Position numbers and translations under genes: made by a program. The notes under the pieces are model-generated. The model was not told the origin of the DNA and did no database searches. It worked only from the letters and a program-made list of their open reading frames with translations. Positions 1 through 58,419 of a stretch of 64,000 nt of DNA are shown piece after piece. Position 1 is the first letter of the stretch; each line of letters opens with the position of its first letter. The DNA lies in assembly GCF_045037415.1 (NCBI RefSeq), contig NZ_CP173438.1. One strand, written 5' to 3'. Origin of the DNA: Escherichia coli. GTDB lineage: Bacteria; Pseudomonadota; Gammaproteobacteria; Enterobacterales; Enterobacteriaceae.

Positions 1-1880
1 TTGCAAAAAATGAAAAAAGTAGTGCGACAGGTATATCTCTGGAAGCGACCACGGGAAATAATTTAACGCTCAATGGCACAACCATAAATGCTCAAGGTAA
101 TAAGAGTTCCAGCAACGGCTCTACGGCAATTTTTGCTCAAAAGGGTAATTTGTTGCAGGGTTTTGACGGTGATGCAACCGACAACATCACCCTTGCTGAC
201 TCAAATATTATTAATGGTGGGATTGAAACAATAGTTATTGCCAAGGAGAATAAGGGAATTCATACAGTCAACCTGAATATTAAGGATGGCTCAATAATTG
301 GGGCGGCTAATAATAAACAAACAATTTATGCCTCTGCTTCGGCACAAGGCGCAGGTTCAGCAACGCAAAATTTAAATTTGTCTGTTGCTGATTCAACCAT
401 CTACTCTGATGTCCTGGCCCTTTCTGAAAGCGAGAATTCAGCCGGTACCACAACAAATGTAAATATGAACGTTGCCCGCTCTTACTGGGAAGGTAATGCT
501 TATACGCTCAATAGCGGCGATAAAGCGGGTAGTGATCTGGATATAAATCTTTCCGATAGTTCAGTCTGGAAAGGCAAAGTTTCAGGGGCAGGAGATGCCA
601 GTGTATCTCTGCAAAACGGGTCTGTCTGGAATGTTACGGGTTCCTCAACTGTTGATGCTCTGGCAGTAAAAGACAGTACGGTTAATATCACGAAGGCTAC
701 AGTCAATACTGGCACGTTTGCTTCTCAAAACGGCACTCTGATTGTTGATGCCTCTTCTGAAAACACTCTGGATATCAGCGGAAAAGCGAGCGGTGACTTG
801 AGTGTTTACAGTGCGGGTTCATTGGATCTTATCAATGAACAAACGGCATTTATTTCTACCGGCAAAGACAGCACTCTAAAAGCCACAGGCACAACGGAAG
901 GTGGTCTGTATCAATATGACCTGACACAGGGAGCTGATGGTAACTTTTATTTCGTAAAAAACACGCATAAAGCATCCAACGCCAGCTCCGTGATTCAGGC
1001 AATGGCAGCTGCTCCGGCTAACGTCGCTAATCTGCAGGCTGACACGCTCTCCGCCCGTCAGGATGCTGTCCGTCTGAGCGAAAATGACAAGGGTGGCGTA
1101 TGGATTCAGTACTTTGGCGGTAAACAGAAACATACCACCGCGGGAAATGCATCCTATGACCTGGATGTAAATGGTGTAATGCTGGGTGGTGATACCCGCT
1201 TCATGACTGAAGATGGTAGCTGGCTGGCCGGTGTGGCGATGTCTTCTGCGAAAGGTGACATGACTACCATGCAGAGCAAAGGTGACACTGAAGGTTACAG
1301 CTTCCACGCTTACCTGAGCCGCCAGTATAACAACGGTATCTTCATTGATACTGCTGCACAGTTTGGTCACTACAGCAACACGGCAGATGTTCGCCTGATG
1401 AATGGTGGCGGTACCATCAAAGCTGACTTTAACACCAATGGTTTTGGTGCGATGGTTAAAGGCGGTTACACATGGAAAGACGGTAATGGCCTGTTTATTC
1501 AGCCATATGCCAAACTGTCTGCTCTGACTCTGGAAGGTGTGGATTATCAACTCAACGGCGTGGACGTTCATTCTGACAGCTATAACTCTGTGCTGGGTGA
1601 GGCCGGTACGCGCGTGGGTTATGACTTCGCTGTGGGCAACGCGACCGTTAAACCTTATCTGAATCTGGCCGCACTGAACGAATTCTCTGATGGCAACAAA
1701 GTCCGTCTGGGTGATGAGTCTGTCAATGCCAGCATTGACGGTGCAGCATTCCGCGTGGGTGCAGGTGTACAGGCTGATATCACCAAAAACATGGGAGCAT
1801 ATGCAAGCCTTGACTACACCAAAGGTGACGACATTGAGAACCCGCTACAGGGTGTAGTTGGTATCAATGTGACCTGGTAA
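1..1880 (+). CDS. Autotransporter adhesin (AIDA-I/Ag43 type), C-terminal passenger repeats plus beta-barrel translocator; gene begins upstream of the window
   Basis: Frame is open from nt 3 to the stop at 1878-1880 (the 150..1880 ORF is its TTG-started tail); Gly/Asn/Thr/Ser-rich repeat passenger, then barrel-like C-terminus ending in an aromatic residue (GINVTW). Confidence 0.7.
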   Translation, partial: AKNEKSSATGISLEATTGNNLTLNGTTINAQGNKSSSNGSTAIFAQKGNLLQGFDGDATDNITLADSNIINGGIETIVIAKENKGIHTVNLNIKDGSIIGAANNKQTIYASASAQGAGSATQNLNLSVADSTIYSDVLALSESENSAGTTTNVNMNVARSYWEGNAYTLNSGDKAGSDLDINLSDSSVWKGKVSGAGDASVSLQNGSVWNVTGSSTVDALAVKDSTVNITKATVNTGTFASQNGTLIVDASSENTLDISGKASGDLSVYSAGSLDLINEQTAFISTGKDSTLKATGTTEGGLYQYDLTQGADGNFYFVKNTHKASNASSVIQAMAAAPANVANLQADTLSARQDAVRLSENDKGGVWIQYFGGKQKHTTAGNASYDLDVNGVMLGGDTRFMTEDGSWLAGVAMSSAKGDMTTMQSKGDTEGYSFHAYLSRQYNNGIFIDTAAQFGHYSNTADVRLMNGGGTIKADFNTNGFGAMVKGGYTWKDGNGLFIQPYAKLSALTLEGVDYQLNGVDVHSDSYNSVLGEAGTRVGYDFAVGNATVKPYLNLAALNEFSDGNKVRLGDESVNASIDGAAFRVGAGVQADITKNMGAYASLDYTKGDDIENPLQGVVGINVTW

Positions 1881-1918
1881 GAATAAAGCAGTCGGTTCCC
1901 CTGTCGACTGTTATACCC

Positions 1919-1947
1919 CCTGCAGGCAGCAGTATGCTGCCTGCAGG
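1919..1947 (+). terminator. Perfect 12-bp inverted repeat (cctgcaggcagc-agtat-gctgcctgcagg) downstream of the autotransporter stop; possible terminator stem-loop
   Basis: Palindrome read directly; no strong T-tract follows. Confidence 0.35.
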
Positions 1948-2063
1948 CTATAAATATCCAGTACTCATGATGCTGGCTTTTTGCTGATATTTACCCTGAA
2001 CATTCCTGATACAGACTATTAATACAACCTTATCTGCGACAGATTTCATTTTCTGGATATATT

Positions 2064-2732
2064 ATGAATGAACAAATCAAACAGGATATCGATCTGATTG
2101 AGATTTTATTTTATCTGAAGAAAAAGATTCGTGTTATCCTTTTTATTATAGCTATCTGTATGGCAATGGTGCTGTTGTTTCTGTATATCAATAAAGATAA
2201 TATAAAAGTGAGTTACAGCCTAAAAATAAATCAGACAACACCAGGCATACTTGTTAGCTGTGATAGCAATAATAACTTTGCCTGTCAGACCACAATGACT
2301 GAAGATGTTATTCAGCGAATTACTACATTTTTTCAGACCAGCCCAGATGTCAAGAACAGAGAAATAAAGCTGGAATGGTCAGGAGATAAGAGAGATTTAC
2401 CAACTGCTGAAGCGGAAATATCTCGCGTGCAGGCGTCTATCATTAAATGGTATACGTCAGAATACCATAATGGCAGGCAAGTTCTCGATGAGATACAAAC
2501 GCCTTCAGCAATTAACAGTGAGCTTTATACAAAAATGATATATCTGACCAGGAACTGGTCACTGTATCCGAACGGTGATGGCTGTGTCACTATAAGCTCA
2601 CCAGAAATAAAAAATAAATACCCTGCTGCCATTTGCCTGGCTCTGGGATTTTTTCTAAGTATTGTGATTTCTGTAATGTTTTGCCTTGTCAAAAAAATGG
2701 TAGATGAATACCAACAAAACTCTGGGCAGTAA
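2064..2732 (+). CDS. ykgH: Predicted inner-membrane protein YkgH (222 aa)
   Basis: 222-aa ORF with N-terminal and C-terminal hydrophobic segments; position next to ykgG and length match my recollection of K-12 ykgH; AT-rich. Confidence 0.65.
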   Translation: MNEQIKQDIDLIEILFYLKKKIRVILFIIAICMAMVLLFLYINKDNIKVSYSLKINQTTPGILVSCDSNNNFACQTTMTEDVIQRITTFFQTSPDVKNREIKLEWSGDKRDLPTAEAEISRVQASIIKWYTSEYHNGRQVLDEIQTPSAINSELYTKMIYLTRNWSLYPNGDGCVTISSPEIKNKYPAAICLALGFFLSIVISVMFCLVKKMVDEYQQNSGQ

Positions 2733-2974
2733 TAAACAGCATTCTGACAGAGAGTGCCTGTATAAAACTATAGTGACAGTGACCGGGAAGGGAGCCCGTC
2801 TTCAGGAATGGATTCCTGTCTTTTTAACTGTAAATATCCTGGCATTATTAATGTCAGGATATTTACAGAAGAGCAGCATAACCATGACGGAACGGGGTTA
2901 AGTCAGGTTGTCCTTAACGCTATTCACAACCTCGTATACCGCCTTCAGGTTTATGTCCAGACTACATATCTCTC

Positions 2975-3670
2975 TCAGCAATCCTCAATAATCAGATACA
3001 CCGCTTTCACCGGACCATGAACCCCGACGACTTTGATAAGCTCAATGTCCGCCGTTGAACTGGGACCACTGATGATGTTAATACATGACGGCATTCGTTC
3101 ACCGGCCTGCGCTTTCTGATGCAATTTTTCTGCAAGTTGCGCTACACGCGGCAGGATTGTGCTTTTACGCAGGATAAAAAGAGAAGATTCCGGGAGCAGG
3201 CTCAATGAACGCCCGCGCCCGGCGGCGGAAAAAAGAACCACGCCTCCCGATTCGGTTAAACCATATTCAGCATATACGACGCCCACTATAGCCTGCTCTG
3301 CTTGTGATATGTTCTCAATACCTTTCGCCGGATCCCAAACAACGGCATTGCATTCCTGCTGCAAACGTTCGCTAATCCCCAATTCCTCCAGCCTCGTGTC
3401 ACCGCTAATCACGACCGACTGATCTCCCAGCTCTTTACACAGACGTATTGCAGCTTCTGCCGCCTTCGCCTCGCTGGTCAGTTCACAGCGCGTCAACATA
3501 ACATCGCTGGCAAACTGGATAAACGCGTCACAGCGCTGTTGTTGGGTAAGTTGGGTAAGCCGCTCGTTAGCATAGTTGTTAAGCGGCGCATCTTCTGCTT
3601 GCGGTTCAAGTCGCAGCGGGCGACCCAGTGCCTGAGCAACGTTATTCAAAAATTCGCTCCGATTATCCAT
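2975..3670 (-). CDS. ykgG: LutC-like lactate-utilisation protein YkgG (231 aa)
   Basis: Start taken at ATG 3670 (MDNRSEF...), overlapping the ykgF stop by 8 nt; the longer 282-aa ORF is an upstream extension; last gene of ykgEFG. Confidence 0.8.
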   Translation of the reverse strand: MDNRSEFLNNVAQALGRPLRLEPQAEDAPLNNYANERLTQLTQQQRCDAFIQFASDVMLTRCELTSEAKAAEAAIRLCKELGDQSVVISGDTRLEELGISERLQQECNAVVWDPAKGIENISQAEQAIVGVVYAEYGLTESGGVVLFSAAGRGRSLSLLPESSLFILRKSTILPRVAQLAEKLHQKAQAGERMPSCINIISGPSSTADIELIKVVGVHGPVKAVYLIIEDC

Positions 3671-6345: not shown

Positions 6346-7200
6346 TCAGGGTGCAAGCTGTCTCACCCTTTCCCGATATTCTCCCGGAGTACAACCAAAC
6401 TCGCGGACAAACGCCTTGTGAAAAGATGATTCACTGGCATAGCCTACTGACTCAGCGATCACCACAACAGGGAGCATTTCCCGGGAAAACATCTGGGCCG
6501 CTATTTGTAGACGCAACTTTGTTAATACAGCCAGCGGCGTGGTTCCGGAAACATCACGGAAAAGCTGGGCAAAACTTGCCCGGGACATGTGGGCGATGCT
6601 GGCCAGCGATTCGACGGTCCAGGCGTGTCCAGGCATTTCCATCATTTGCTGTATTACCGCACCAAGACGTGGATGCAGAAGCAAACTGAGAATGTTTTTC
6701 TCTGTATTAACCTGTGCAATCCACTCACGCACCGCGAGGGTAAAGAATGTAGCGCAGATCTGGCTACACAGAGCATCCACTCCCGGCATTGCCGATCTGG
6801 ATTCCTGTTGTAAAAACGGGATCGCCTCCCTCAGCCAGTTATATTCCACGCTATGGTTCACTGGTGCTACAAACAGCGTTTCCGGCAAAGACGTTAAAAA
6901 ATAACGCGCCGAATGTTGCAGCCGAAGAGTTCCACAGACAATACAGGTCGATTCATTATCGACATGACTCAGGCGATGAGCTGAATTTTGTGGTAGCAGG
7001 ACCACATTTCCCGGGCGTAATGTAAAAATCTCTCCCGTCGGCATTTCCAGCTTCGCCGCTCCTTGCGTTAACGCATGCCAACGAATAACCGACAACTCCC
7101 CGGCACCATGTGGAAGTTGCCAGTCACTTCCTAACACGCAATTCTTATCGATCGTTCCTTGTGGAGCGTTAAGCATCAACAAACGGCTAAGAGCATCCAT
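6346..7200 (-). CDS. rclR: AraC-family redox-sensing activator RclR (284 aa)
   Basis: C-terminal AraC-type HTH; start taken at ATG 7200 (MDALSRLL...); divergent from rclA. Confidence 0.8.
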   Translation of the reverse strand: MDALSRLLMLNAPQGTIDKNCVLGSDWQLPHGAGELSVIRWHALTQGAAKLEMPTGEIFTLRPGNVVLLPQNSAHRLSHVDNESTCIVCGTLRLQHSARYFLTSLPETLFVAPVNHSVEYNWLREAIPFLQQESRSAMPGVDALCSQICATFFTLAVREWIAQVNTEKNILSLLLHPRLGAVIQQMMEMPGHAWTVESLASIAHMSRASFAQLFRDVSGTTPLAVLTKLRLQIAAQMFSREMLPVVVIAESVGYASESSFHKAFVREFGCTPGEYRERVRQLAP

Positions 7201-46010: not shown

Positions 46011-46086
46011 TGGTGCCGATAATAGGAGTCGAACCTACGACCTTCGCATTACGAATGCGCTGCTCTACCAACTGAGCTATATCGGC
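46011..46086 (-). tRNA. thrW: tRNA-Thr (anticodon CGU), 76 nt including CCA
   Basis: Reverse complement reads GCCGATATAGCTCAGTTGGTAGAGCAGCGCATTCGTAATGCGAAGGTCGTAGGTTCGACTCCTATTATCGGCACCA; cloverleaf arms and CGT anticodon identifiable. Confidence 0.9.
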
Positions 46087-52465: not shown

Positions 52466-53923
52466 GTGTCTGAACTGTCTCAATTATCTCCACAGCCGCT
52501 GTGGGATATTTTTGCCAAAATCTGTTCTATTCCTCACCCGTCCTATCATGAAGAGCAACTCGCTGAATACATTGTTGGTTGGGCAAAAGAGAAAGGTTTC
52601 CATGTCGAACGCGATCAGGTAGGTAATATCCTGATTCGTAAACCTGCTACCGCAGGTATGGAAAATCGTAAACCGGTCGTCTTGCAGGCCCACCTCGATA
52701 TGGTGCCGCAAAAAAATAACGACACCGTGCATGACTTCACTAAAGATCCTATCCAGCCTTATATTGATGGCGAATGGGTTAAAGCGCGCGGCACCACGCT
52801 GGGTGCGGATAACGGCATTGGTATGGCCTCCGCACTGGCGGTTCTGGCTGACGAAAACGTGGTTCACGGCCCGCTGGAAGTGCTGCTGACCATGACTGAA
52901 GAAGCCGGTATGGACGGTGCGTTCGGCTTACAGAGCAACTGGTTGCAGGCTGATATTCTGATTAACACCGACTCCGAAGAAGAAGGTGAAATCTACATGG
53001 GATGTGCGGGGGGTATCGACTTCACCTCCAACCTGCATTTAGATCGTGAAGCGGTTCCAGCTGGTTTTGAAACCTTCAATTTAACCTTAAAAGGTCTGAA
53101 AGGCGGTCACTCCGGCGGTGAAATCCACGTTGGCCTGGGTAATGCCAACAAACTGCTGGTGCGCTTCCTGGCGGGTCATGCAGAAGAACTGGACCTGCGT
53201 CTTATTGATTTCAACGGCGGCACACTGCGTAACGCCATCCCGCGTGAAGCCTTTGCGACCATTGCTGTCGCAGCTGATAAAGTCGACGCCCTGAAATCTC
53301 TGGTGGATACCTATCAGGAGATCCTGAAAAACGAACTGGCAGAAAAAGAGAAGAATCTGGCATTGCTGCTGGACTCCGTAGCGAACGACAAAGCTGCATT
53401 AACGGCGACATCTCGCGATACCTTTATTCGTCTGCTGAACGCCACCCCGAACGGAGTTATCCGTAATTCCGATGTAGCCAAAGGCGTGGTTGAAACCTCC
53501 CTGAACGTCGGTGTGGTGACCATGACCGACAATAACGTAGAAATTCACTGCCTGATCCGTTCTCTGATCGACAGCGGTAAAGACTACGTAGTGAGCATGC
53601 TGGATTCGCTGGGTAAACTGGCAGGTGCGAAAACCGAAGCAAAAGGCGCATATCCTGGCTGGCAGCCGGACGCTAACTCTCCGGTAATGCATCTGGTACG
53701 TGAAACCTATCAGCGTCTGTTCAACAAGACGCCGAACATCCAGATTATCCACGCGGGCCTGGAATGTGGTCTGTTCAAAAAACCGTATCCGGAAATGGAC
53801 ATGGTGTCTATCGGGCCAACCATCACCGGTCCACACTCCCCGGATGAGCAAGTTCATATCGAAAGCGTTGGCCATTACTGGACACTGCTGACTGAACTGC
53901 TGAAAGAAATTCCGGCGAAGTAA
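52466..53923 (+). CDS. pepD: Cytosol non-specific dipeptidase PepD (485 aa), GTG start
   Basis: M20-family metallopeptidase motifs (HLDMVPQ, GADNGIGMA); length. Confidence 0.9.
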   Translation: MSELSQLSPQPLWDIFAKICSIPHPSYHEEQLAEYIVGWAKEKGFHVERDQVGNILIRKPATAGMENRKPVVLQAHLDMVPQKNNDTVHDFTKDPIQPYIDGEWVKARGTTLGADNGIGMASALAVLADENVVHGPLEVLLTMTEEAGMDGAFGLQSNWLQADILINTDSEEEGEIYMGCAGGIDFTSNLHLDREAVPAGFETFNLTLKGLKGGHSGGEIHVGLGNANKLLVRFLAGHAEELDLRLIDFNGGTLRNAIPREAFATIAVAADKVDALKSLVDTYQEILKNELAEKEKNLALLLDSVANDKAALTATSRDTFIRLLNATPNGVIRNSDVAKGVVETSLNVGVVTMTDNNVEIHCLIRSLIDSGKDYVVSMLDSLGKLAGAKTEAKGAYPGWQPDANSPVMHLVRETYQRLFNKTPNIQIIHAGLECGLFKKPYPEMDMVSIGPTITGPHSPDEQVHIESVGHYWTLLTELLKEIPAK

Positions 53924-53978
53924 TTATTTGATTTGCTGCCGGATGGCGTTTAACGCCTTCCGGCAGTTTCATCCTTCA

Positions 53979-54593
53979 TTATCCTTCGATAAAAGCCATC
54001 CCTGTGAACGTTCGTCGCGGGTTGCCACGTTCAATCTGGTGATGGAACATTCGCCGCTGCGATTTCAGCGCCGCGCTATTTTCCTGTTGCTGTTGTTCCA
54101 GCTTCCAGGCAATCAGTAATCGCGCCAGCCGTTTGTTAGCATGCTGACTGCGCTCTGACTGAACCTTCACGCTAATACCGGATGCCAGATGCGTGGCGCG
54201 TACCGCCGAGTCGGTTTTATTGACATGTTGACCGCCCGGCCCCGACGAACGCAGCGTCTCATAACGGATTGCATCCGATTGTTCCTGCTCATCAGCGGTA
54301 AAACGCCCAATGCCCAGAAACCAGTTTTTGCGCCCATGATGAGGCCGATACGGACTCGGACAAATCCACTGAATAGTGCCGCACCAGCTTTCGCTTAGAG
54401 CCCATGCGTTATCGCCATCCAGAGAAATCAGCGCCGAACGCAGTGTGTCAGAGTAGCGACCCGTTTCTGTTTCCAGCACCGTTACCGCGACGTCCTGTCG
54501 GGTAGCTTCTTTAATCAGCCTGTCCAGTGCTTTTTTCACTGCGAGACAACATTCTTCCGGCCCCTGAGCAGAGGAGAGTTGTAGCAAGATCAT
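53979..54593 (-). CDS. prfH: Peptide chain release factor homolog PrfH, full length (204 aa) with GGQ motif
   Basis: [16 protein letters not shown] motif; start ATG 54593 overlaps the stop of the upstream rtcB-like gene (ATGA). Confidence 0.75.
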
Positions 54594-55741
54594 CCTTTTT
54601 TCCCTCCACTGTTTTTGAGCGTCAGCACCGGGCGCAGTCGCGCGACAGGAATAATTAACCCAGCCAGCACCAGACATTGCACCACGCTTTCAGCCGATTT
54701 ATAGGCTTGTGGCGCTTCTTCAAAGATGAGTTGTTTATCGCGACAAATTACCCGACTGCCAAGTTCAGTCCGCGAGAGTTGCGTCGCCGTGTATTTCGCT
54801 GCCAGACGCCCTTTACACTCGGTGCGCCCCCATTTACGCCCCGCCCCATGCGCCAGCGAGTGGAGCGTTTTTTCGTTCGCAACAGGTTTAACCAGCCAGG
54901 AGTAATCGCCGCGTGAACCGGGAATAATCACCAGACCGTTGTCATCCGGCGTGGCGCCTTTACGATGCAACCAGCCCTGTTGATCGCCGATTTGGCACGC
55001 GCTAACAAAGTTATGCGCCACATCCAGAACCGGACTTCCGGTGGCCTTAACTTGTTGCATTATGCGCAAAGCGATCAGCTGGCGATTAATACGCGCAAAC
55101 GCCAGCGCATCGTCATGTTCCGCAATATACCGTAGCGCGTCGTCACTGCCTTCAGGCAAACCATGATGCGAAAACGAGGCAATATGCCGCTGTAAAATAG
55201 ACTGCCCCAATCCCCTCGAGCCGCTATGAACCAGTAGTTGCAGATGCTGCGCATCCAGACCAGCCCGTGCAAACAGTTCCGCGTCGATAATTTGATCAAT
55301 CTGTTGCAGTTCTGCGAAGTGGTTACCGCCACCGATGGAGCCAAGCGAGTTGTGCCACGGATGCTGTGCAAATGCTGACGGCAGGTTTTCCTCCAGCCAG
55401 CTTTCTTCAGCAACGTCATCCAGATCTGATAATCGCTTTTCAAACTTATCGGCGTTGTATTTGCGAGCGAGAATATCTGTTTGCCATAGCGCCATGCCGC
55501 AGCCGATATCATTGCCGACCAGTGCCGGGTAAAAACGACCAACAGAGAAGAACGCTGCGCCAATCGGGTAGCCGCGTCCGGGATGTAAATCTGGCATCCC
55601 CACAACGCGCTGCATGTTGGGTAAATTTGCCGTGGTGTGTAATTGTTGGATCGCTAAACTCTCGATCCACAGGTCATCAGATGCGATGGTAAATACCGCA
55701 TCGGATAAGGGACGAATATATTTGCCCATGTACCATTCCAT
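54590..55741 (-). CDS. RtcB-family RNA ligase paralog (partner of PrfH; intact counterpart of the K-12 ykfJ fragment)
   Basis: RtcB-like sequence with metal-binding His/Cys context ([17 protein letters not shown]); translationally coupled to prfH. Confidence 0.75.
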
Positions 55742-55918
55742 TTATGAATAAAAATCAGGAAATGGCAGACGAATCCAGGGCAAGAAAAAAGAATTAATCC
55801 TGGAAAGGTCTGCAAAGAGTCATTGATAAAGGATTTGTCATGATTTACCTCCTTGCAGTTTGTGGAATAAGAAAACGCGCACATACTAGACGGGCGTTAT
55901 TTTCATTGCAAGCTGGAT

Positions 55919-56371
55919 TTAATGTTGCGGTTTATATCGCATATAAAAATTAGTAAACCACGTTCCCCGGCATTCAACGCGCTGCTGCTTAACTGTCTGA
56001 AAACCATAACGTTCAAAAAAGGGTTTTGCGGTTATGCTGGCGTCCACCGTAAGTTCGGATTCAGACTTAATCAATGGTTTTAACAAAGCGCTGGCAACTC
56101 CGCGTCGGGTGTATTCCGGTTCAACAAATAACATATCGATATAATGTCCAATGCGGGTAATAAAACCAACCGGTTGTGCATTAATAACTGCAACCCGCAC
56201 TTGTGATTTCGCGAGTTTCTCCTTCCAGCGAGATTCGTCAATCTGCGCCCAGGCGGCAATTTGCTGTGGAGAATAGTGCTGACTCGCCGTCATCGTAACA
56301 GCTCGAAGGAAAATAGCGCATAGTTGCTGAAAATCACCAGGCTGATAGTTTCTTATTTGTATGTTATTCAT
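55919..56371 (-). CDS. yafP: GNAT-family acetyltransferase YafP (150 aa)
   Basis: GNAT fold motifs; ATG overlaps the dinB stop (ATGA). Confidence 0.8.
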
Positions 56372-57423
56372 AATCCCAGCACCAGTTGTCTTTCCATTTG
56401 CGGGTCAAGCAACGTCACATGCAGCCCCACCAGTCGCACACCGCGCCCGCCGCGGCGTTCATCCCAGGTTTTACGCGCGGTGGCGATTAGATCAGATTTA
56501 TTCAGCCGCGGCCAGACGTGTTCCTGGGTGGTTTGCTGAAAATCGTCGAACTTTAATTTCACCCCCTGGCGGGCAATCAGCAAATCAGGTTTTACCTTTG
56601 CCAAACGACGCTCCAGTTCAGGGTAAAGCCGCTCGATGATCGCTTCACATTCAGACCAGTGATGAATATCTTCCGCCATCGTACGTTCTACACCGACGGA
56701 TTTTCGCAACCTTTCGCTGTTAACGTCGCGTTCGTCAATGCCCTGACTACGCTCCCACAAAATGCGGCCAAATTTGCCAAAGCGTTTAAGCAGCATCACC
56801 AGATCACACTTTTGCACATCACCGCAGGTCCGCAGCCCCATCGCTTCCAGTTTTGCCGCCGAGACTTTGCCGACGCCGGGAATTTTTGCCAGCGGTAAGG
56901 TTTGTAAAAATGTCGGAACTTCTGCCGGCGTAATCACAAACTGGCCGTTGGGTTTATTCATGTCGGAGGCGATTTTGGCGAGAAACTTTACTGGTGCCAC
57001 GCCCGCAGACGCCGTCAGTTGCAGCTCGTTGAAGATCGTCTGGCGGATTTCCTGGGCGATGAGGGTCGCAGAACCGTGGCAATGGACGCTATCGGTGACA
57101 TCGAGATAGGCTTCATCCAGTGATAACGGTTCAATGCGCGAGGTATAGCGCGAGAAAATTTCGCGGATATGATTTGAGGCTTCTTTGTAGGCGTCAAAGC
57201 GCCCTGGAAGCAAGGTGAGATGCGGGCATAATTTGAGCGCCATCCCTGTCGGCATAGCGCTACGTACGCCAAATTTACGCGCGGGATAATTGGCGGTGCT
57301 GATCACCCCCCGTCGTTCGCGGCTGCCGCCAATAGCAATAGGGATATCGCGCAGGGCGGGATTGTCGCGCATCTCCACCGCTGCGAAAAAGCAGTCCATA
57401 TCCACATGAATGATTTTACGCAT
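56368..57423 (-). CDS. dinB: DNA polymerase IV (Y-family) DinB (351 aa)
   Basis: [33 protein letters not shown]... Y-family signature. Confidence 0.9.
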
Positions 57424-57493: not shown

Positions 57494-58417
57494 TTAACGC
57501 GTTCGCTGCGAAAGCACCTGCTGCTTATCCAGCTTTTGCACCAGCGGCTGCACCACTTTATCCCCATGCTGACCAAAGTATTGATACAGCGTATCGGACG
57601 CACTTTTGGTCAGCACCATAATCTCAATGCGCCGGTTGCCCGCGCTTTGCGGATTTTTGGCATCCAGCAGCATCTGGTCCGCCATTGCACTTACCTGCAT
57701 CACTTTATCTTCCGGCATTCCGGCCTCTTCCAGCACCCGACGAGCTGAAAGCGCGCGATCGCCCGAAAGGTTCCAGTTGTTGTAGATATTGTTTTTGTAG
57801 GCCATCGCATCGGTATGCCCGGTAATAATAATTTTGTTATCGAGCGAGTCGAACACTGGCGCAAGCTCCACCAGCAAAGTTTTAAAGAACGGCATAATCT
57901 TCGCGCTGCCGCGTTCGAACATATTGCGGTTCTGGTCGTCTTTAATCAGCACGCGTAATCCCTGGGGAACAATCTCCATCTCCAGATTCGCTTCCATATG
58001 CGCATCACGGGCGATGGTATTGATACTGGTTGCCAGCTCGCCAAGCTCGGTGGCGGATTTCTTCTTCAGCAGCGCCGTTTTCTCGTTGACGTCGCGCGCT
58101 TTTTTCTCCGTCTCTTCCGGCACCGCCACGGTGGCAGGTTTTGGCGGATGAGACGGGCTGATTTTATTTAACGGCGACAACCCACCACCGTTAAAAATCG
58201 ACTGCCCGTGCAGCGCGGCGATAATGCTTTCACGCTCGGATTTACTGACGCTGTTGACAATCCACAGCGTCATAAATAGCGCCATCATTGCCAAAGTAAA
58301 GTCGGCGAACGCCACCTTCCACGCCCCGCCGTGATGCCCGGCATGATTCTTTTTGATCTGCCGCCGGACGATGGTGGTTTTTGCCCCACGTTCGCGGTGG
58401 TTGCCCGTCTTTCTCAT
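57494..58417 (-). CDS. lafU: Lateral-flagellar (Flag-2) stator protein LafU (MotB-like, OmpA-type C-terminus)
   Basis: MotB-like TM/plug region (WKVAFADFTLAMMALFMTLW) and OmpA-like peptidoglycan-binding C-terminus; start taken at MRKTGNH; adjacent to dinB as expected for Flag-2. Confidence 0.7.
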   Translation of the reverse strand: MRKTGNHRERGAKTTIVRRQIKKNHAGHHGGAWKVAFADFTLAMMALFMTLWIVNSVSKSERESIIAALHGQSIFNGGGLSPLNKISPSHPPKPATVAVPEETEKKARDVNEKTALLKKKSATELGELATSINTIARDAHMEANLEMEIVPQGLRVLIKDDQNRNMFERGSAKIMPFFKTLLVELAPVFDSLDNKIIITGHTDAMAYKNNIYNNWNLSGDRALSARRVLEEAGMPEDKVMQVSAMADQMLLDAKNPQSAGNRRIEIMVLTKSASDTLYQYFGQHGDKVVQPLVQKLDKQQVLSQRTR

Positions 58418-58419
58418 GC

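Follow-up and report, generated by a model that had tools for sequence, protein, structure and literature searches.

An intact rtcB2-prfH operon in Escherichia coli and a candidate leader-controlled RNA switch upstream of it

The window analysed here is a stretch of 64,000 nucleotides (nt) of Escherichia coli DNA (assembly GCF_045037415.1, contig NZ_CP173438.1). On its minus strand, between pepD (52466-53923, plus strand) and yafP (55919-56371, minus strand), it carries the gene pair rtcB2-prfH. RtcB2 is an RNA ligase that joins 3'-phosphate and 5'-OH ends via a His294-guanosine monophosphate (GMP) intermediate, and PrfH is a protein related to release factor RF2. The locus is very probably an intact chromosomal operon whose products act on ribosomes with 16S rRNA cleaved between A1493 and G1494 by colicin E3 or ribotoxins of the CdiA-CT type, first rescuing them and then repairing the cut. 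Upstream of rtcB2 lie a short leader open reading frame (ORF) and a set of potential RNA helices, which may together form a switch controlling the operon.

The gene pair and its junction

An earlier reading of the window, made from the letters alone (below, the sequence-only reading), had described both genes as full length, and this was borne out by end-to-end matches to NCBIfam models. RtcB2 matches NF007153/PRK09588 with 642 bits (cut-off 407) over profile positions 1-378 of 379 and TIGR03073 'release_rtcB' with 618 bits (cut-off 272) over the whole profile, and PrfH matches TIGR03072 with 329 bits (cut-off 167) over positions 1-200 of 200. Alignment revealed no frameshift, truncation or internal stop in rtcB2 or prfH of the window, a check which that reading had named. 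The locus is 100% identical to the annotated genes of strain SK1144 and of several other isolates (Table 1).

The closest characterized pair is that of E. coli ATCC 25922, whose PrfH was solved on a damaged 70S ribosome (PDB 7SA4, chain 8). The window PrfH is identical to this chain at 203 of 204 residues, the sole difference being K20 here and R20 there. The residues contacting the cleaved A1493 3'-phosphate, h18/S12, C1914 and C1054 are all kept (R83, H86, R88, R189, K89, N90, R52, S53, R181, H184 and H85), as is the catalytic Q122. The protein aligns only to RF2 residues ~115-305, so that it corresponds to the RF2-like domains 2-4 without domain 1. It equals the ATCC 25922 protein (EcPrfH) in length from end to end and has no C-terminal ArfB-like tail. 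No structure of RtcB2 is deposited, and its active site was checked by alignment to RtcB of Pyrococcus horikoshii. RtcB2 residues D74, C77, H137, H168, H239 and H294 align with D95, C98, H203, H234, H329 and H404 of that enzyme, and D47, H49 and N136 with D65, H67 and N202. Hence the metal ligands, the loss of which the earlier reading had proposed to look for, and the His294 nucleophile are all present. PADLOC contains no model for either protein, and an Rfam scan by E-value over 53900-56400 returned just two chance matches, both sub-threshold.

The longest ORF of the RtcB family runs from 55741 to 54590 (383 amino acids, aa). The start of rtcB2 was placed at its second ATG, at 55729, because the NCBIfam profile alignment begins at residue 5, RefSeq gives rtcB2 a length of 1140 nt in every genome inspected, and the first in-frame ATG (55741) is not conserved, being ACG in O26-type alleles; a start at 55741 was rejected on these grounds. 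For prfH, a 232-aa ORF from 54677 was rejected in favour of the start at 54593, on the evidence of the profile alignment, the 7SA4 chain and RefSeq. The sequence-only reading had thus been right about the pair itself, which it placed at 53979-55741, and had set the beginning of rtcB2 12 nt too far out. Its description of PrfH as a protein of about 204 aa with a GGQ motif was accurate (the motif occupies residues 120-122), and the overlap of the two genes as ATGA lies where it had been seen, at 54590-54593.

Table 1. Features of the rtcB2-prfH locus, in window positions
Feature	Position	Strand	Details
rtcB2 coding sequence	54590..55729	minus	379 aa + TGA; RefSeq WP_000521559.1 in the identical strain SK1144
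prfH coding sequence	53979..54593	minus	204 aa + TAA; translation and TIGR03072 match
ATGA overlap of rtcB2 stop and prfH start	54590..54593	minus	TGA 54592-54590, ATG 54593-54591
GGAGGG, Shine-Dalgarno sequence for prfH	54602..54607	minus	within the rtcB2 3' end; GGAGG core 9 nt before the prfH ATG
GGQ codons of PrfH (G120, G121, Q122)	54228..54236	minus	peptidyl-tRNA hydrolysis centre; Q122E and Q122N inactive (PMC9304027)
His294 codon of RtcB2	54848..54850	minus	GMP-accepting nucleophile; P. horikoshii RtcB alignment; H294N inactive (PMC9304027)
Leader ORF MTNPLSMTLCRPFQD	55794..55841	minus	15 codons + TAA; ends 64 nt upstream of the rtcB2 ATG
Candidate sigma-70 promoter	55883..55911	minus	TTGCAA (55911-55906), 17-nt spacer, TAGTAT (55888-55883); read by eye, putative
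Segment 1 CUGCAAGGAGG	55848..55858	minus	leader Shine-Dalgarno region, 5' arm of P1; in minimum-energy fold
Segment 2 CUCUUUGCAGAC	55808..55819	minus	leader codons 8-11; 55819-55810 is the 3' arm of P1, 55813-55808 the 5' arm of P2
Segment 3, 3' arm of P2	55765..55779	minus	CCUGG (55779-55775), GUCUGC (55770-55765)
Helix P3	55733..55765	minus	CCAUUUCC (55765-55758) pairs with GGAAUGG (55739-55733); U-rich loop; just 5' of the rtcB2 ATG
Segment missing in K-12	54496..55522	minus	1027 bp; bounded by 9-nt microhomology TACCCGnCA
Imperfect inverted repeat, 13 bp	53936..53966		between the convergent prfH and pepD stops; read by eye; possible shared terminator

The arrangement of the two genes was compared over 87 loci from ~80 species of Gamma-, Beta- and Alphaproteobacteria, which were collected by tblastn against plasmids and phages and by a scan of species-representative genomes. 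The query of the genome scan was the PrfH-specific N-terminal domain only, in order to avoid RF1 and RF2; the set does not include P. aeruginosa. In all but two of the 87 loci (85), prfH is immediately preceded by rtcB2 on the same strand, and one of the two exceptions is truncated by a contig end. The genes share 1-14 nt at start and stop in 79 of these 85 loci: 50 have a 1-nt overlap (TGATG or TAATG), 28 the 4-nt ATGA overlap seen in the window and one an overlap of 14 nt. A gap of 0 to 2 nt separates the genes in five further loci, and one outlier has a gap of 181 nt. The conservation of both adjacency and overlap indicates that the arrangement is a selected feature rather than a product of chance. 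In addition, each of the seven diverged loci that were inspected has a GGAG-type sequence ahead of the prfH start. The ATGA overlap together with the Shine-Dalgarno sequence inside rtcB2 suggests that synthesis of PrfH is coupled to translation of RtcB2, the same inference that was drawn from the overlap by Baranov et al. 2006 (PMC1586002). The sequence-only reading had called the pair translationally coupled; the overlap geometry on which this depends is present, and the coupling itself is deduced from that geometry only. The strong Shine-Dalgarno sequence that prfH has of its own weighs against coupling.

The leader ORF and RNA helices upstream of rtcB2

The spacer between yafP and rtcB2 is 177 nt long and contains the leader ORF, whose ATG is preceded at 5 nt by a consensus-type Shine-Dalgarno sequence (AAGGAGGT). 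The ORF is unchanged in six E. coli alleles that elsewhere differ by 2-5%. The Salmonella leader is equally long and is preceded by an identical Shine-Dalgarno sequence. It differs from that of E. coli in the first half and nearly matches it over the last 24 nt; the C-terminal LCRPFQD of the peptide is invariant between the two genera. The ~100 nt from the leader to the rtcB2 start are likewise nearly identical in E. coli and Salmonella, whereas the RtcB2 proteins are only 75% identical. A leader-type ORF, defined by an ATG start, a length of 8-30 codons, a Shine-Dalgarno match of 5 nt or more and a position within 300 nt upstream of rtcB2, was found in 73 of 85 loci, compared with 3.7% in shuffled controls. 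The encoded peptides form a family, to which Pseudomonas species contribute MQQLITLCRSRLA, Proteus MTTTNMNTLCGQSQK and Ralstonia MRHLAFPFAGPCLG. Depending on the lineage, the conserved nucleotide block CUUUGCAGG is translated as L-C-R or as F-A-G; since it is kept across reading frames, the constraint on the leader acts on the RNA and not on the peptide.

A candidate sigma-70 promoter lies further upstream in the spacer (Table 1). At the aligned position Salmonella has TTGCGC-17-TACTAT, even though the spacer has diverged. A promoter scan of the minus strand of the spacer reported none; the candidate matches 8 of 12 consensus positions, which is below the threshold of the scanner. A literature search for the E. 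coli leader peptide sequence returned nothing, and a paper on riboswitch prediction ranks the K-12 spacer 98 in its candidate table without further analysis.

Three helices can be drawn in this region. P1 pairs the leader Shine-Dalgarno region with CUUUGC, P2 pairs GCAGGN with NCCUGC, and P3 pairs CCAAUCC with GGAUUGG. RNAalifold, applied to 28 species, returned P2 as the sole consensus helix, with GCAGGN in the leader ORF pairing with NCCUGC ~45-130 nt downstream. In counts from the 28-species alignment, in which relatedness among the sequences inflates the shuffle statistics, P2 was 95% paired (slid controls 20-43%), with 13 doubly changed cells against 3.8±1.5 expected from shuffling, a number reached in 0 of 500 shuffles. 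The corresponding values were 72% paired (controls 20-49%) and 10 doubly changed cells against 5.2±1.7 (2 of 500 shuffles) for P3, and 87% paired (controls 39-62%) and 2 against 1.8±1.1 (294 of 500 shuffles) for P1. A compensatory change in P2 is exemplified by GCAGAC/GUCUGC in E. coli and GCGGAC/GUCCGC in Proteus. On the alignment, P2 thus covaries, P3 has moderate support, and P1 is best described as a conserved complementarity.

As P1 and P2, and likewise P2 and P3, share nucleotides, neighbouring helices exclude one another; an inner CCAGG (55803-55799) lies by segment 2. The minimum-energy fold of the E. coli RNA contains P1 and an extended P3, which pairs the rtcB2 AUG. When the footprint of a ribosome at the start codon of the leader was masked, P2 formed in the folds of 10 of 11 species; with a ribosome masked at the leader stop, P2 was blocked and the hairpin proximal to rtcB2 was restored. 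The P3 hairpin of E. coli lacks a 3' U-run and covers the rtcB2 start instead.

Distribution, loss and genomic context

The Salmonella pair occupies the same position as that of E. coli, between dinB and pepD-gpt-frsA-crl. Several apparent mobile copies were discarded. A record named 'Salmonella phage S.Kent 1-2-1' (OR850930.1, 4.8 kb, unverified) had suggested a phage copy; its exact PrfH was found between dinB and pepD on Salmonella assembly contigs, and its DNA is probably that of the host and not of a phage. The other phage matches were distant RF-like genes, and most of the E. coli plasmid matches were F-primes or chromosome-sized records. Genuine plasmid or megaplasmid copies were found in Ralstonia and on a Klebsiella IncC plasmid. 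The latter, the conjugative resistance plasmid pKpnB4_3 of K. pneumoniae, carries a diverged rtcB2-prfH pair (1686-3549 of the locus record; PrfH 44% identical) beside sul1, and this pair has a leader ORF of its own, MQNTSTSFAGLVR. The module, leader included, is therefore horizontally mobile. On a Shinella plasmid, a second and longer RtcB-family gene lies immediately upstream of rtcB2-prfH (126-1550 of the locus record).

The sequence-only reading had described both genes as truncated in K-12, which proved correct for BW25113, where a single 1027-bp deletion extends across both and the annotation gives each as a partial pseudogene. BLAST of BW25113 against the window showed that the missing segment (window 55522..54496) comprises codons 70-379 of rtcB2 and roughly 32 codons from the beginning of prfH, so that rtcB2 codon 69 is joined to about codon 33 of prfH. 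A global MAFFT alignment of K-12 scrambled the deletion region and was set aside for the BLAST result. K-12 also has a 129-bp insert (K-12 record 6821-6949) that replaces window 55747-55746, in the loop of P3. The insert belongs to a dispersed repeat present in a median of five copies per E. coli genome and resembles an element of the ERIC/IRU type. O26-type alleles with intact genes have a 57-bp remnant of a repeat at the same 55746-55747 site and have lost the first in-frame ATG. Baranov 2006 (PMC1586002) had already described K-12 and O157:H7 as having lost ~1000 nt by deletion and CFT073, 042 and UTI89 as carrying the genes intact.

At least 80% of the 2-kb locus is present in 2709 of 5426 complete E. 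coli genomes, the remainder having alleles of the K-12/O157 type or other shorter ones. As about half of the complete genomes carry the locus, an intact pair in the present strain is an ordinary finding. In some E. coli alleles that are otherwise full length, rtcB2 is inactivated by a frameshift or an inserted IS1, and these point to ongoing, independent loss of the module in the species.

With regard to the surroundings of the operon, the 13-bp inverted repeat downstream of prfH has no U-run and for that reason was not reported by the terminator scan. Upstream, dinB and yafP overlap by 4 nt (window 55919-57423), and hence the yafN-yafO toxin-antitoxin pair, which lies between them in K-12, is absent. 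Salmonella also lacks yafP, and there rtcB2 directly follows dinB. Beyond dinB, at window ~57494-64000, the window carries a lateral (Flag-2) flagellar cluster with lafU, motA, a FliA-type sigma factor, fliL, fliK and fliS, of which K-12 retains at this position only lafU and a fragment of flhA. An island beside tRNA-Thr (thrW, 46011-46086), at window ~20685-46086, contains an integrase, a UvrD-like helicase, a type I restriction-modification system with a DUF4268 gene and a complete type I Zorya anti-phage system (zorA-D).

Function, regulation and comparison with known systems

Colicin E3 and CdiA-CT(ECL) cut 16S rRNA between A1493 and G1494. EcPrfH was found to release peptides only from ribosomes damaged in this way and to do so without mRNA in the A site (PMC9304027). 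EcRtcB2 re-ligates damaged 30S subunits and not cleaved tRNAs, whereas the opposite holds for RtcB1, and reversal of the damage done by E3-like toxins in vivo requires the activities of both RtcB2 and PrfH (PMC9304027). Ligation by RtcB2 is best on free 30S subunits. It was later reported that RtcB2 alone repairs 30S and 70S particles and that PrfH speeds the repair of translating ribosomes (PMC13166195). Loss of either rtcB2 or prfH sensitizes ATCC 25922 to colicin E3, and K-12, which is sensitive, is protected by plasmid-borne rtcB2 with or without prfH (PMC9223846). The proposal of the sequence-only reading that the pair has been published as a repair or rescue module is therefore well founded (PMC9304027, PMC9223846 and PMC13166195, on nearly identical ATCC 25922 proteins), and its expectation that this strain has the functional version gains support from the full-length genes and the intact catalytic and contact residues.

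The window locus is thus very likely to encode a working rescue-and-repair operon. Three points weigh against this conclusion or limit it. The activity in this strain is read from sequence and from near-identical proteins; PrfH differs from the solved protein by one substitution (K20R), and the near-identity of RtcB2 to its ATCC 25922 counterpart is deduced from a DNA identity of at least 95% across E. coli. Furthermore, the need for PrfH appears to depend on conditions, because overexpressed RtcB2 alone protects cells (PMC9223846). The interpretation of the intact module is already known (Baranov 2006; Tian 2022; Maviza 2022, 2026). The strain should withstand ribotoxins of the colicin E3 type better than K-12, an expectation that is useful for annotation and is not new. 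The part that would go beyond the known module is the leader.

A precedent for leader control exists in Pseudomonas aeruginosa, in which armZ (PA5471) and PA5470 are under attenuation control by a 13-codon leader, PA5471.1: a 3:4 terminator can form once the leader has been translated in full, but not when ribosomes stall. ArmZ has been described as an RtcB-like ligase and as a representative of cluster PRK09588, the model matched by the window RtcB2, while PA5470 is annotated as PrfH. The expression of armZ is induced by aminoglycosides, by chloramphenicol and by suhB or cca mutations, and a review names K-12 ykfJ as a homologue of PA5471 and reports it as inducible by the translation inhibitor 4-azaleucine. 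A 2025 review calls the leader control unique to MexXY. No paper containing both 'ArmZ' and 'RtcB2' was found in the literature searched, which did not cover Morita et al. 2009, a study that may note homologous leaders.

By analogy, expression of the E. coli operon would be controlled by the 15-codon leader ORF and the three mutually exclusive helices. P1 and P3 would form in free RNA and also on complete translation of the leader; P3 would then mask the rtcB2 start and keep the operon off. A ribosome stalled at or near the leader start would occupy segment 1 and free segment 2 to pair with segment 3; the resulting P2 would prevent P3 and expose the rtcB2 start, turning the operon on. Ribosomes cleaved by colicin E3 were reported to accumulate at start codons (PMC13166195), and since toxin-damaged ribosomes stall there, the operon may sense its own substrate. 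Induction of the E. coli operon by ribosome stalling is an inference from these elements. The wider proposal is that a conserved PA5471.1-like leader and RNA switch, turned on by ribosomes stalled near the leader start, governs rtcB2-prfH in E. coli and in the majority of Gamma- and Betaproteobacteria with this operon, and that ArmZ is a co-opted member of the repair module. It is advanced tentatively, as an idea with a reasonable chance of being right that still falls somewhat short of probable.

Several observations weigh against it. The terminator scan found no intrinsic terminator on the minus strand of the E. coli spacer, and a score of the accessibility of the ribosome-binding site did not separate the on and off states consistently across taxa. 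P1 is too invariant for covariation, and the shuffle statistics are subject to the inflation by relatedness mentioned above. The likeness to PA5471.1 rests on published descriptions and on other Pseudomonas species, the P. aeruginosa sequence lying outside the locus set. The lack of a terminator, together with the position of P3 over the rtcB2 start, suggests that the output may be translational or that the element works differently.

A first alternative is that the module is mainly a general translation-stress device, induced by any stalling, such as that caused by antibiotics or amino-acid analogues, and releasing stalled ribosomes, so that colicin E3 resistance is one outcome among others. 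A role of this kind has been reported for PA5470 and armZ of P. aeruginosa, PA5470 was reported to relieve macrolide-induced stalling, and the 4-azaleucine response of ykfJ fits the same picture. A leader of the PA5471.1 type responds to stalling in general, and a second PrfH subfamily rescues intact stalled ribosomes as well. However, E. coli PrfH neither released peptides on intact ribosomes nor bound them, and RtcB2 repaired 30S subunits and not tRNAs (PMC9304027). The operon gave no protection from tRNA-targeting colicins (PMC9223846), and the window PrfH has no C-terminal tail like that of the dual-function subfamily. A mainly general role is hence considered unlikely.

It is also conceivable that the short ORF and the helices are conserved for another reason, either because the ORF encodes a functional small protein or because the RNA is an element of mRNA stability or processing. 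The lack of an evident terminator and the inconsistent changes in accessibility would fit such a role, and the invariance of the LCRPFQD C-terminus between E. coli and Salmonella would fit a small protein in particular. Against this, the CUUUGCAGG block occurs in different frames by lineage, as expected of a constraint on RNA, P2 covaries, and the homologous Pseudomonas leader was experimentally shown to control the downstream gene. This explanation is accordingly judged quite improbable.

A reading in which the genes, intact in sequence, are silent or in decay in this lineage, as they are in about half of E. coli, and confer no protection is most improbable: the locus has repeatedly been lost (deletions of the K-12/O157 type, shorter alleles, an IS1 insertion, a frameshifted allele) and the consensus scan gave no promoter in the spacer, but no nonsense or frameshift changes were found, all catalytic and contact residues are kept, conservation of the leader and of the candidate promoter extends to Salmonella, the same allele occurs at 100% identity in several unrelated isolates, and the wild-type chromosomal copy protects ATCC 25922 (PMC9223846).

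For the preferred reading, an intact rescue-and-repair operon that may be leader-controlled, the question of regulation is the one with most to gain. Published work on RtcB2-PrfH used plasmid overexpression or constitutive chromosomal copies and is silent on regulation; the papers on the pair cited here make no mention of a leader, a promoter, ArmZ or Pseudomonas. A stall-sensing leader would offer a testable answer to the question of when cells make the repair enzymes, and it would link RtcB2-PrfH to the ArmZ/MexXY antibiotic-response pathway of P. aeruginosa.

Among known systems, the RtcB2-PrfH pair of E. coli ATCC 25922 (PMC9304027, PMC9223846, PMC13166195; 7SA4) is the nearest, being a chromosomal locus of the same species with overlapping genes. 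Its RtcB2 has the same length of 379 aa, and the H294 numbering fits the window protein; its PrfH has R20 in place of K20. The K-12 ykfJ-prfH pseudogenes represent the same locus, with ~97.6% identity in the retained parts and an identical leader ORF, and differ from the window in the 1027-bp deletion, the 129-bp repeat in the P3 loop and the presence of yafN-yafO upstream. E. coli RtcB1, encoded in the rtcBA operon, shares with RtcB2 the RtcB fold, the 3'-phosphate/5'-OH ligase activity, the His-GMP intermediate and the Mn2+ ligands. The two proteins are ~28% identical (PMC9304027), and RtcB1 repairs tRNAs and not 30S subunits cut by E3; unlike RtcB2, it has RtcA rather than PrfH as its partner and is under RtcR/sigma-54 control. 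CgPrfH of Capnocytophaga gingivalis (PMC12829566, PDB 9MOR) belongs to the PrfH family, is encoded with an RtcB and has the GGQ and rRNA-recognition domains. It is longer (231 aa), with an extra C-terminal tail through which it also rescues intact non-stop ribosomes, whereas the window PrfH (204 aa) has no such tail.

The PA5471.1-armZ-PA5470 system differs from the E. coli locus in several respects. Its leader lies ~250 bp upstream and its proposed output is a terminator, while the E. coli leader of 15 codons lies 64 nt upstream with no evident terminator; ArmZ also acts as an anti-repressor of MexZ, and mexXY is absent from E. coli. The order of the elements is nevertheless the same, namely a short leader ORF followed by a gene of the RtcB2 family (PRK09588) and then prfH. 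The leaders of other Pseudomonas species (MQQLITLCRSRLA) have 13 aa and Q at codon 3, in agreement with the description of PA5471.1, and contain the same CUUUGCAGG core as that of E. coli. In the PA5471.1 system alternative RNA structures are read out by the position of the ribosome on the leader, and the helices of E. coli would be read out in the same way.

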